Below, piece after piece: positions 4,628 to 8,812 of a stretch of DNA of 18,459 nt (positions are counted from its first letter, which is position 1; each line of letters begins with the position of its first letter). The DNA comes from an uncultured delta proteobacterium (lineage in GTDB: Bacteria; Desulfobacterota; RBG-13-43-22). Where the stretch lies: NCBI GenBank assembly GCA_963711835.1, contig CAVQFQ010000024.1, positions 1 to 18,459 of the forward strand. The letters are read 5' to 3'. The notes beneath the pieces are model-generated. The model saw nothing but the letters and a program-made list of their open reading frames with translations. It ran no database searches and was not told the DNA's origin. The position numbers and the translations under genes were made by a program.

Positions 4628-4704
4628 CGGGACGTAGCGCAGTTTGGTAGCGCACCTGAATGGGGTTCAGGGGGTCGCTGGTTCAAATCCAGTCGTCCCG
4701 ACCA
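4628..4704 (+). tRNA. tRNA-Pro(GGG)
   Basis: CGGGACG acceptor stem pairs with CGTCCCG-ACCA. D-arm TAGCGCAGTTTGGTAGCGCA, anticodon arm CCTGA-ATGGGGT-TCAGG, T-arm GGTTCAAATCC. CCA is encoded. Confidence 0.97.
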
Positions 4705-5041: not shown

Positions 5042-5989
5042 ATGGGGCAAAATTTATCTTTTGGAAAACGTCTGTCCCAAAATGGGATTAGTCGTCGTGA
5101 TTTTTTAAAGTTTTGCGGCATCATGGCCGCTACCCTGGGGCTGCCGGAATCTTTTGTACCGAAAATAGCCCAGGCCTTAAGCGCCGCGGTCCGGCCGCCT
5201 GTTGTCTGGCTTGAATTTCAGGACTGCACGGGCGATACGGAATCTTTCCTCAGGGAGCCGACCATCATCAGCCTGCTGCTGGAAACGGTGTCCCTGGACT
5301 ACCATGAAACCCTGATGGTGCCTTCAGGCGCCTTGGCGGAACAGTCCCGTATCGATACCATCCAAAATTATCCCGGCCAGTATATCTGTATCGTGGAAGG
5401 GTCCATCCCGACCGCCAGTAACGGCGTTTACTGCACTATCGGCGGCCGCTCGGCCCTGTCCATCGCCCAGGAGGTCTGTGGTAACGCCCTTATGACCATT
5501 GCCGTGGGCACCTGCGCCTGGGACGGAGGCATCGCCGCAGCCGTTCCCAACCCCACCGGCGCCATGGGCGTCAAGGACGCCCTTCCTGGGCTGACCAATC
5601 TCATCAATCTGCCCGGCTGCCCGGTGAATGCCTATAACATTGCGGCGACCCTCGTTTACTATCTTACGAACCAACAATGGCCCCCGACCGACAGTCAGAG
5701 GCGCCCCATTTTCGCCTATGGGGAGGAAATCCATGAAGAATGCCCGCGCCATGACCATTACGAAGCAGAACGTTTTGTTCTGGCCTGGGGAGATCAAGGG
5801 CACAGGAACGGCTGGTGCCTGTTTAGAATGGGCTGCAAAGGGCCAAGAACGCGAAACAATTGTCATACGGTTAAATGGAACGGAGGCACCAACTGGCCCG
5901 TCGGGGCCGGCCATGGCTGCATCGGCTGCGCTACGGCCAAATTTTGGGATACCCTGACGCCTTTTTATCAGGCCCTGCCGGGCGATTAA
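5042..5989 (+). CDS. Group 1 [NiFe]-hydrogenase small subunit, Tat-exported, no C-terminal membrane anchor
   Basis: Tat motif SRRDFLK. Proximal cluster ligands QDCTGD, GTCA and PGCP. Distal HEEC and WCLFRMGC. Medial NC...WPVGAGHGCIGC, where the Pro indicates [3Fe-4S]. Ends FYQALPGD without a TM helix. Confidence 0.95.
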   Translation: MGQNLSFGKRLSQNGISRRDFLKFCGIMAATLGLPESFVPKIAQALSAAVRPPVVWLEFQDCTGDTESFLREPTIISLLLETVSLDYHETLMVPSGALAEQSRIDTIQNYPGQYICIVEGSIPTASNGVYCTIGGRSALSIAQEVCGNALMTIAVGTCAWDGGIAAAVPNPTGAMGVKDALPGLTNLINLPGCPVNAYNIAATLVYYLTNQQWPPTDSQRRPIFAYGEEIHEECPRHDHYEAERFVLAWGDQGHRNGWCLFRMGCKGPRTRNNCHTVKWNGGTNWPVGAGHGCIGCATAKFWDTLTPFYQALPGD

Positions 5990-5999
5990 GAGTAACTTA

Positions 6000-6310
6000 T
6001 TGGTATCGTTCAAAAGTTGTGGCATTAAATTTCTGATACCCGATGGAAAGGGACCGGGGGTCTTGATTTCAAGGATTGTCCGCCAAAACGCCGGCAGCCT
6101 GAACCCGGGCAGGAAGTTTATAAGGGGTTTAGAAACAGGCCAACACCAAAGCGATTTATCGTCTTGGGTGAATGCCCGGCTTCCAACCAACTTAGAAATT
6201 CGGGCCGGGTTGGGGCTACGGATTACCTTTCGGACAACCTTGAAATCAAGACCCCCGGTCCCCAAGTCAGGCAATAATACGCCAGTGTTATAACTTTTGA
6301 ACGTTACCAA
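6000..6310 (+). repeat. Approximately 310-nt nested inverted repeat (rod-like hairpin) between the hydrogenase subunit genes
   Basis: 6000-6026 pairs with 6284-6310, 6050-6082 with 6231-6262, and 6096-6108 with 6205-6217. Apical hairpin at 6144-6170. Confidence 0.9.
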
Positions 6311-6339
6311 ATTATTAAGAAATGAAATAAGGAGCAGTT

Positions 6340-8106
6340 ATGCCGAAAGTTTTTTTACCTTTAATCATGCAGAATCCGCAGGTGACCTCCCAGCGAATCG
6401 TCTTGGACCCGATCACCCGCATTGAAGGCCACTTGCGCATTGAGGTTCAGGTGGATAACGGTTACGTCACCGACGCCTGGAGCTCGGGGATGATGTTCAG
6501 GGGGCTCGAACTGGTGCTCAAAGGCCGCGACCCCCGCGATGCCTGGCTCTTTGCCCAGCGTATCTGCGGGGTTTGAACGACCGTTCATGCTATCTGCTCC
6601 GTGCGGGCAGTTGAAAACGCCTTGGGCATCGTCATACCGGACAACGCCCGGATCCTGCGCAACCTGCTGGAAGGGGCCCAGTTCATCCAGGATCATGTGA
6701 TCCATTTTTACCATCTCCATGCCCTGGACTGGGTTGATATTGTCAGCGCCCTATCGGCTGACACCAATGCCACCAGCCTGCTGCAACAGTCCGTCTCAAG
6801 CTGGCCCAACTCCAGTCCGGCTTATTTTCAAACCGTCAAGAACCGCCTGACAAGCTTTGTCAACAGCGGGCAACTGGGGCTTTTTGCCAACGGCTACTGG
6901 GGACATCCGGCCTATAAACTGCCGCCGGAAGCCAACCTGATGGCTGCGGCCCATTATCTCGAGGCCCTGGATTTCCAGCGGGAGTATATTAAATTTCACG
7001 CCGTGCTGGGCGGCAAAAATCCTCATCCCCAGACCTATCTGGTAGGCGGCATGGCCATTCCCATGGACCGGACCAGCACCTGGTCCATCAATGACAATAC
7101 CATCGCCCAGCTCCGAACCATGTCGCAGACGGCCCTGAACTTTGTAACCCAGGTCTATATCCCGGATCTTTTGGCCATTGCTTCCTACTATAAAGATTGG
7201 GCCGGACTGGGAGCCGGACCGGGCAACTATCTGTCCTACGGGGATTGGCCGGCCGGCCCTCAGGGAGGGTATTCCTGGGGGAATCAATGGCTACCTCGAG
7301 GACTGGTCTTTAATAAAAACATCGCTTCCGTACCGCAAGCCCTTGACCCCAACCTGATCGGCGAATATGTCAGCCGTTCCTGGTACAGCTATAGCGGCGG
7401 TGACGCCTTGCCGAAAAATCCGGCCCAGGGAGAAACGGTTCCCAGCTATACCGGTCCTCAGCCGCCTTTCGAAAATCTGAATACCGACGGAAAATACTCC
7501 TGGCTCAAATCGCCGCGATACAACGACGCCCCCATGGAAGTAGGACCGCTGGCCCGGATGCTGGTAGCTTACGCCGCCGGGCACACTCAGGTACGGCAGG
7601 AGATCAACAATGTTCTGGCCACCCTGGGGCTGGGGGCTGCGGCCCTGTTCTCAACCCTGGGGCGCGTGGCGGCCCGGGGTGTTGAAACCCTGCTGGCGGC
7701 TCGGAAGATGACTGACTGGATTACTGAACTGGAGGTCAACCTCAATAGTGGCAATCTGATCATTCATGAGTCCTCGAAATGGAATCCCGCCTCCTGGCCG
7801 GCTGATGCCCAGGGCTGGGGGGCCACCGAAGCGCCCCGCGGTGCTTTGGGCCACTGGATCCAGATCAAGAACGGGAAAATCGAAAACTATCAGGCCGTGG
7901 TGGCCACGGTCTGGAATGGCTCCCCCCGGGATGGAAAAGGGCAGCGCGGCGTCTGGGAAGAGGCCTTGATCGGCACGCCTATAGCGGATCCGGAAAGGCC
8001 GGTAGAGGTGCTGCGCACCATTCACTCTTTCGATCCCTGTATGGCCTGTTCAGTGCACATCGTGGACGGGCGGGGCCGAGAAGTGACCCGTGTACGCGTT
8101 GACTGA
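6340..8106 (+). CDS. Group 1 [NiFe]-hydrogenase large subunit (588 codons) with in-frame TGA at codon 79 (candidate selenocysteine)
   Basis: ORFs 6340-6576 and 6601-8106 share a frame and read DPITRIEGH...QRICGV(TGA)[16 protein letters not shown]...[10 protein letters not shown]...[12 protein letters not shown] plus a 15-aa cleavable tail. RBS AAGGAG at 6329-6334. Confidence 0.9.
6582..6619 (+). promoter_or_regulatory. Candidate bacterial SECIS element
   Basis: Upper stem CTGC[T]CC-GTGC-GGGCAG (6594-6610) with a bulged U and a G-initiated loop beginning 25 nt after the TGA. Possible lower pairing between CGTTCA and TGAAAACG. Not scored with a model. Confidence 0.5.
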
Positions 8107-8107
8107 A

Positions 8108-8599
8108 ATGAAAGAGGCCAAGATCCTTATCCTGGGACTGGGCAACATTCTGTTACAGGATGAAGGCTTGGGCGTGCAGGCTGTCCAAAGGCTGGAGTCT
8201 AACTATCAATTGCCTCCAGATGTGGAGATAATTGATGGAGGAACCAAGGGCCTTGATCTTCTTCCTTTTCTCGAAGGCCTCACCGACCTGCTTATCCTGG
8301 ATGCGGTTAAGATGGACGAGGCCCCTGGAACTTTAATTCGATTGGAAGGGGAGGCCATTCCAAAGGCCCTTTCCGTCAAAATGTCCATGCATCAAGTGGG
8401 TCTGCAGGAACTCCTGGCCCTGGGCGACCTGCAGGGCACACTCCCATCCCGCATCGTCCTCCTGGGTTTGGAGCCCGCTGTCGTTGATTGGGGACTGGAA
8501 CTCTCACCGCCAGTCGCTGATAAACTGGATGAACTGGTAGAGGCAGCGGCCGAAGAATTACGACGCTGGCAGGTTGAGCCTATTGAGAAACCGGCGTAG
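8108..8599 (+). CDS. Hydrogenase maturation endopeptidase (HyaD/HybD family)
   Basis: ILILGLGNILLQDEGLGV, IIDGGT, LILDAV, SMHQVGL, LSPPV. Starts 1 nt after the large-subunit stop. Confidence 0.93.
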   Translation: MKEAKILILGLGNILLQDEGLGVQAVQRLESNYQLPPDVEIIDGGTKGLDLLPFLEGLTDLLILDAVKMDEAPGTLIRLEGEAIPKALSVKMSMHQVGLQELLALGDLQGTLPSRIVLLGLEPAVVDWGLELSPPVADKLDELVEAAAEELRRWQVEPIEKPA

Positions 8600-8665: not shown

Positions 8666-8679
8666 TCAAGTCAAGAATA

Positions 8680-8780
8680 ACAAAGGGGAGTAGCTTTTAA
8701 GATAGTTGCCGTCAATACGCCTTCCTAAAAGGGGGCCGGTACTATCCGTTAGAGCCCAATCTAACAAGCCAGACCTTTGT
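8680..8780 (+). ncRNA. yybP-ykoY manganese riboswitch aptamer
   Basis: ACAAAGG-GGAGTAGC 5' signature, CGTCAATAC L3 motif and 3' GCCAGACCTTTGT closing P1. Lies upstream of a P-type ATPase, as for L. lactis yoaB. Confidence 0.88.
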
Positions 8781-8812
8781 CACGATATGACCGTGACAAA
8801 GGTCTTTTTTTT
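8771..8812 (+). terminator. Riboswitch expression-platform intrinsic terminator
   Basis: AGACCTTTGTCACG-ATATGAC-CGTGACAAAGGTCT plus a T tract. The 5' arm overlaps the aptamer P1 3' strand, giving ON-switch geometry. Confidence 0.88.

Follow-up and report, generated by a model that had tools for sequence, protein, structure and literature searches.

The window, by which we mean the whole 18,459-nucleotide stretch analysed, is contig C24 of the source genome G000, which comprises 3.9 Mb in 28 contigs and is 89% complete. It contains a hydrogenase operon in the order small subunit, large subunit and maturation protease (Table 1). The large-subunit frame opens with an ATG at 6340, preceded by AAGGAG at 6329-6334, and closes with a TGA at 8104-8106; its codon 79 is also TGA. 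Positions 6559-6588 read CGT ATC TGC GGG GTT TGA ACG ACC GTT CAT (R-I-C-G-V-TGA-T-T-V-H), so that UGA takes the place of the second cysteine in the RxCGxC motif of a group 1 [NiFe]-hydrogenase large subunit, and the site aligns to RICGVC in PDB 3MYR. The residue at this position bridges nickel and iron, according to the available text of PMC13582414. An earlier, preliminary description of the window had reported that this UGA is the only interruption of the 588-codon gene, that it falls on a metal ligand and that the C-terminal motif is all-cysteine; the sequence and the 3MYR alignment agree on each point, the two C-terminal Cys codons lying at 8038-8040 and 8047-8049.

Table 1. Hydrogenase genes, metal-binding motifs and associated elements in the window.
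Feature	Position	Strand	Basis or description
Hydrogenase small subunit, 315 aa	5042..5989	+	TIGR00391, 365.9 bits (cut-off 179.5); TIGR01409 above cut-off
Multicopy intergenic repeat, MITE-like	6000..6310	.	Nested inverted arms 6000-6018/6292-6310 and 6050-6074/6238-6262
Large subunit, group 1 [NiFe]-hydrogenase	6340..8106	+	588 codons with UGA79 read through; PF00374, alignment, model
N-terminal Ni-binding motif C76-G-V-U79 (U79, putative)	6565..6576	+	TGA 6574-6576 at the bridging ligand; bridging role from PMC13582414 (available text)
SECIS-like hairpin	6594..6610	+	6-bp stem CUGCUC/GGGCAG, 5-nt loop CGUGC
C-terminal Ni-binding motif DPCMACSVH	8032..8058	+	Both ligands Cys
HyaD/HybD-family maturation endopeptidase	8090..8599	+	TIGR00140, 168.1 bits (cut-off 151.8)

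The large subunit scores about 721-728 bits against PF00374, with one TGA inside the match, and its nearest solved structure by sequence is 3MYR (E 4.3e-207). The predicted model has a pLDDT of 86 and a TM score of 0.91 to 3MYR; an AlphaFold model made without an alignment (pLDDT 33) was set aside. Both nickel motifs and the fold of a group 1 large subunit are thus present, with UGA as the second cysteine of the first motif, and the Tat-exported small subunit and the maturation protease beside it are likewise those of group 1. The proximal-cluster motif of the small subunit is C62-T-G-D65, with Asp instead of the second Cys. The small subunit lacks a C-terminal membrane anchor, and the operon contains no cytochrome b gene.

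The UGA codon is widely conserved. The exact pattern RICGV-TGA-TTVH occurs at no fewer than 119 GTDB loci, and among the matches listed, the titles name 73 Chloroflexota, 34 delta/Desulfobacterota, 8 Nitrospirota and 4 others. Eighty of the loci among the matches listed have long flanks; in 67 of these the frame continues to DPCxxC, in 6 it reaches the end of the locus first and in 7 it is broken downstream. A metagenome pattern allowing Cys or TGA returned 81 loci (32 TGA, 49 Cys), and the nearest metagenome relatives, L170 (94% identical) and L182 (95%), both carry TGA. Cys codons and TGA, the two states that the search patterns asked for, were the only ones at the ligand column. Contigs from three public runs (X2 and X3, DNA; X12, RNA) cross the codon with neighbouring differences and none listed at 6574-6576; these contigs come from relatives (94-96% alike) and not from the source genome's own reads, and the RNA contig does not prove transcription. 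A further run, X9, gave no contig at 91%. Downstream of the UGA, dN/dS against L170 is 0.10 over 509 codons, and values of 0.02-0.17 were obtained in the 18 pairs, out of 19, that had a usable (unsaturated) dS, two of them being Cys-type controls. The database proteins P0004, P0006 and P0036 (94, 91 and 80% identical) are 501-amino acid fragments that start just past the UGA. The in-frame UGA thus aligns to the Cys of homologues in a frame conserved on both sides, and from these comparisons we conclude that it is genuine, neither error nor decay.

The preliminary description had offered a nonsense mutation and a base-calling error as alternatives, to be judged by independent TGA homologues and by downstream dN/dS, and had noted that uniformly Cys-coded close homologues would weigh against recoding. 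The close relatives L170 and L182 instead carry TGA, and the number of TGA loci, the purifying selection downstream and the public-run contigs refute both alternatives. The best public run contains a fraction of only 0.21 of the sequence words, which leaves some room for a base-calling or assembly error, but since independent contigs 94-96% alike keep the TGA, we give error a negligible probability. The same holds for global reassignment of UGA, which the preliminary description had already discounted by pointing to neighbouring TGA stops; the one checked, at 8104-8106, directly follows a normal C-terminus, and a tRNA-Trp(CCA) is present. It is also very unlikely that the TGA acts as a true stop, either in a recent pseudogene or in a gene made as 78- and 501-amino acid pieces. 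A GTG at 6601 could restart translation, 7 of the 80 long loci among the matches listed are broken further downstream, and the genome has a second, intact group 1 enzyme, an all-Cys, group 1b-like paralogue on contig C6 that is 51% identical; yet the same TGA recurs at the 119 or more loci across several phyla, the downstream sequence evolves at a dN/dS of about 0.1, a co-varying hairpin follows the codon, and residue 79, a metal ligand, would be in neither piece.

The hairpin begins 18 nt past the UGA, pairs 6594-6599 with 6605-6610 and has a G at loop position 2, in keeping with the G at loop position 1 or 2 of the downstream hairpin in selenoprotein genes. Its folding energy was not above that of shuffles (z -0.31), and Rfam gave no match across it. 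Among 26 sequences, 99.4% of hairpin cells pair and 15 cells are changed on both sides, in a set chosen from 43 hairpin types for the window's register and containing kin that are not independent; the 17 types omitted are from other lineages, where hairpins occur in other registers. None of 500 shuffles reached these pairing and covariation values, and slid registers pair at 21-62%. When the peptide is kept constant (ICSVRAV), all 27 distinct TGA sequences have an intact 6-bp stem against 8 of 38 Cys sequences, most of the latter being distant controls of about 50% identity; among near-clade Cys loci it is whole in 2 of 7. Hairpin conservation cannot tell which residue is inserted. Relatives with TGA at both N-terminal ligands (UxxU) retain the stem despite amino acid changes from RAV to RGV or RSV. 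Two Cys-coded loci, L180 and L232, have kept a perfect hairpin and are likely recent Sec-to-Cys reversions.

The source genome encodes a tRNA-Sec (UCA anticodon, G discriminator), SelA, SelB and SelD; all four sel genes, for which the preliminary description had proposed to look, are therefore present. A single SelB passes the cut-off, the SelD gene carries its own TGA, and HypD is also encoded. A heuristic coding-potential scan placed the window's site among UGA sites with similar hairpins, including a SelD-like motif; we take the others listed to be FDH-, HdrA- and MvhD-like motifs. Five further candidate Sec sites (C16 c28923, C13 70250, C12 c67983, C5 c274043 and C17 646779) have coding signal on both sides, most of them with a hairpin. 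Co-occurrence with SelA was discarded as a test, the background being too high to discriminate: SelA was found in 48 of the 50 TGA genomes that were searched out of the 119 or more matched loci, against 225 of 251 and 55 of 60 genomes in background sets, and within one class it was missing in 2 of 34 U-type versus 6 of 27 Cys-only genomes (p 0.12). Genomes G074 and G099 had neither SelA nor SelB at the thresholds used.

A different outcome of the same hairpin would be insertion of cysteine through a tRNA-ReC/SelC*-type system; the enzyme would then have a standard NiFe site, and recoding would serve to regulate its synthesis. Such tRNAs exist, and genomes that encode them may translate UGA as Cys (PMC13582414, available text); the hairpin is silent on the inserted residue, and the genome is incomplete. 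However, a single intact UCA tRNA was found, its G discriminator makes it SelC by the rule given in the same text, and just one SelB is above cut-off. No tRNA-ReC (long UCA/GCA tRNA, U discriminator) was found in the 89%-complete assembly; a second selC-like match, C1:7250-7342, was rejected as such, being a partial copy in which the acceptor and the D arm are broken. We therefore regard cysteine recoding as improbable, if less so than a true stop. The conserved codon, the purifying selection to either side of it, the co-varying hairpin and the presence of selA, selB, selC and selD instead argue that UGA79 is recoded, in all likelihood as selenocysteine. As a separate observation, the 3' two thirds of selC are duplicated about 730 bp downstream (G000:C1:7250-8076, L316), flanking two small genes, in what appears to be a small island integrated at tRNA-Sec; the two genes presumably form a HicB/HicA-type pair.

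We surveyed the spread of UGA forms in 251 genomes from the class of G098 (Chloroflexota, presumably Anaerolineae), a genome chosen as TGA-type. A related TGA pattern was found in 35 of the 251 genomes, the reversed control giving 0, and the sample held 11 CxxU, 25 UxxU and 32 CxxC matches. No real UxxC form was found in these 251 genomes of one class, two chance matches having been dropped; L309 was rejected as a chance UxxC (open frame of 29+14 codons), and a TGA match in G182 was rejected by eye. In 401 genomes of the source phylum, a looser pattern gave 33 matches, and 18 of the 30 loci checked are hydrogenases (14 CxxU including the window, 4 UxxU), the other 12 being chance. Group 1 large subunits of the UxxU form (L257-L285 and L252 in the class of G098; L320, L341, L343 and L345) are commoner than CxxU in the 251-genome sample and use the same hairpin. 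One of them, L320, is 1b-like, and genome G083 has one CxxU gene and one UxxU gene.

In a 109-row tree, the second ligand switches state 18 times, and at least 10 of the switches are forced by well-supported branches; for most database proteins in the trees, the Cys state is a protein-level one. An AU test on 36 rows rejected a single clade of all UGA forms (p 2e-53), a result that cannot tell gains and reversions apart. UGA forms fall in three deep group 1 lineages: 1c-like (nearest Hyd-2), 1b-like (nearest Desulfovibrio enzymes) and the window's own, 1f-like. A Cys relative of the window, L232, matches the database protein P0003, has TGC at the ligand codon and is about 80% identical. In the window's subclade, the small-subunit motif CTGD (window 5225-5236) is found whether the member has Sec or Cys, and other UGA relatives have CxxC or CxxN; this motif does not follow the Sec state. 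The large subunit begins with a short FLPL-type motif (window 6340-6369), which by a loose pattern, and often followed by a Pro/Thr-rich linker, occurs in 63 of 77 homologues that have an N-terminal extension (P0003-P0122). The motif resembles one in exported proteins of Chloroflexota and may correspond to it; taken together with tree neighbours from that phylum, this hints that the gene was acquired from Chloroflexota.

The window has the two features of the predicted CXXU variant of [NiFeSe]-hydrogenases, a UGA at the second N-terminal ligand and a C-terminal CxxC. This variant is already in print. The available text of PMC13582414 credits two Group 1 sequences and one Group 3 sequence with N-terminal CXXU to Baltazar 2011; these are the closest precedents, sharing the Sec codon at the same ligand, and the two Group 1 cases belong to the same enzyme group as the window. 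In the HydDB 2016 table (PMC5037454), as far as available, CGVU stands in three group 3c rows (WP_012302733, WP_015617925 and WP_012545782) and CGIU in one 4g row, while the string GVUT is absent from it, and a CxxU form of 'FrhA' was noted in 2007 (PMC1976440, available text). The preliminary description is thus supported in reading the UGA at the bridging ligand as recoded, with Sec as the most likely residue. Its candidate new type of enzyme, and its statement that no natural Sec was known at that position, are not supported, since Group 1, 3 and 4 cases exist in print. These cases are all sequence predictions, and the Ni-Se-Fe bridge in a natural enzyme is, as far as our search reached, still a predicted one. 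The available portions of PMC10779653, PMC4730141, PMC9961374 and PMC13188914 hold nothing on N-terminal Sec in group 1, and our literature search, outside of which most subscription journals lay, returned neither a characterised natural group 1 CxxU enzyme nor a survey of group 1 CxxU forms. Set against the two Group 1 sequences for which Baltazar 2011 is cited, our set covers three lineages and 119 loci or more, and adds evidence from the hairpin, from selection and from trees.

In Group 4, Takano 2026 describes 47 sequences that have Sec at the N-terminal motif, of which 27 are CXXU; the available text (PMC13582414) indicates that they share with our set the CXXU and UXXU forms, a SECIS with an apical-loop G, a mosaic of Sec and Cys in the tree and truncation in annotation. 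They differ in being rare (about 0.2%), membrane-bound energy-converting complexes, whereas the window encodes a Tat-exported group 1 dimer, and in including UXXC, of which our 251 genomes of one class have none. Canonical [NiFeSe]-hydrogenases (group 1a HysAB; PDB 1CC1, 2WPN) are, like the enzyme predicted from the window, group 1 heterodimers with one Sec ligand, SelABCD and a SECIS; in these characterised enzymes, however, selenium is the terminal nickel ligand, contributed by the Sec of the C-terminal UxxC, whereas the window has DPCMAC in place of DPUxxC and scores 404.5 against NF045518 (cut-off 780) and below cut-off against NF045520.

By eye, the closest HydDB rows are those of group 1f (Roseiflexus WP_012121625, Oscillochloris, Frankia, Acidobacterium), and for the shared stretch NPHPQT the best 10 of 24 rows, again compared by eye, are all 1f. 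HydDB, in its available text, lists a cytochrome b for 1f, whereas the window's operon has neither this gene nor an anchored small subunit, the small subunit instead being of the CxxD type; both cytochrome b and an anchored small subunit are present beside the related UGA genes L252 and L253. The FLPL extension of the large subunit is a further difference from HydDB 1f. The all-Cys A. vinosum enzyme 3MYR belongs to group 1e; the window's operon lacks flanking isp genes (cytochrome b and FeS protein). In group 1e, the isp genes lie between the subunit genes, where the window has only the repeat.

Selenium at codon 79 would sit in the bridge between nickel and iron. If decoding follows the established bacterial route, SelB carrying Sec-tRNA would bind the hairpin and the ribosome would insert Sec; Hyp proteins would then add nickel and Fe(CN)2CO, the adjacent protease would trim the C-terminus of the large subunit, and the Tat signal of the small subunit would export the dimer. 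Because the operon encodes no membrane anchor or cytochrome b, the product is likely a soluble periplasmic H2-oxidising dimer, which could pass electrons to multihaem cytochromes c encoded elsewhere; the source genome has 12 multihaem open frames outside the window. Under selenium shortage, translation would be expected to end with codon 78, in which case the group 1b-like, all-Cys enzyme could step in.

Bridging selenium has so far been probed only in an engineered variant, E. coli Hyd-1 C79U, an artificial enzyme that has Se at the same position in an O2-tolerant 1d scaffold. As given in the available text of PMC8020662, this variant had 13% of native activity, the best among four Sec variants, with an apparent KM of 5.3 versus 36.8 uM; it was almost inactive at 10% O2, where the native enzyme kept about 35%. 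KM was lower in all four Sec variants, so the effect is not special to position 79. These kinetics make O2 tolerance an unlikely gain from Sec79 and H2 affinity a possible one. We also advance, as a tentative proposal that we would not yet favour, that the Ni-Se-Fe bridge may be a selected design, repeatedly gained and lost across the 1f-, 1c- and 1b-like branches of group 1, that it may equal the all-Cys form in frequency in some sediment lineages, escaping notice through the way the genes are annotated, and that it may tune the enzyme for scavenging at low H2 and be a required first step towards the double-selenium UxxU sites.

The CxxU variant, already predicted in print, thus appears far more widespread than the literature consulted indicates, and frequent among bacteria of sediments; what is new here, as read from the sequences, is the occurrence of UGA in three separate group 1 lineages and its frequent switching with Cys. 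Natural Sec/Cys pairs of about 80% identity, such as the window and L232/P0003, offer a test of selenium as a bridging ligand. Because gene callers trim these genes to 501-amino acid fragments that lack the first nickel motif, the genes may be overlooked or thrown out when H2 metabolism is surveyed in Chloroflexota, Desulfobacterota and Nitrospirota.

Several other features of the window lie outside the coding sequence of the hydrogenase. The MITE-like repeat between the subunit genes has dozens of copies across the source genome and is not part of the recoding signal. Scans for promoters and terminators gave results at chance level. The operon starts directly after a tRNA-Pro (window 4628-4704), the right end of the contig (12570-18459) has a lower GC of 0.43-0.48 and small toxin-antitoxin-like gene pairs, and together these features suggest a genomic island; the copy in genome G009 sits in a different context. 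Finally, the yybP-ykoY Mn riboswitch matches window 8673-8792 weakly, at 14.3 bits against a gathering score of 45, directly upstream of a P-type ATPase gene, a context that fits riboswitches of this family.
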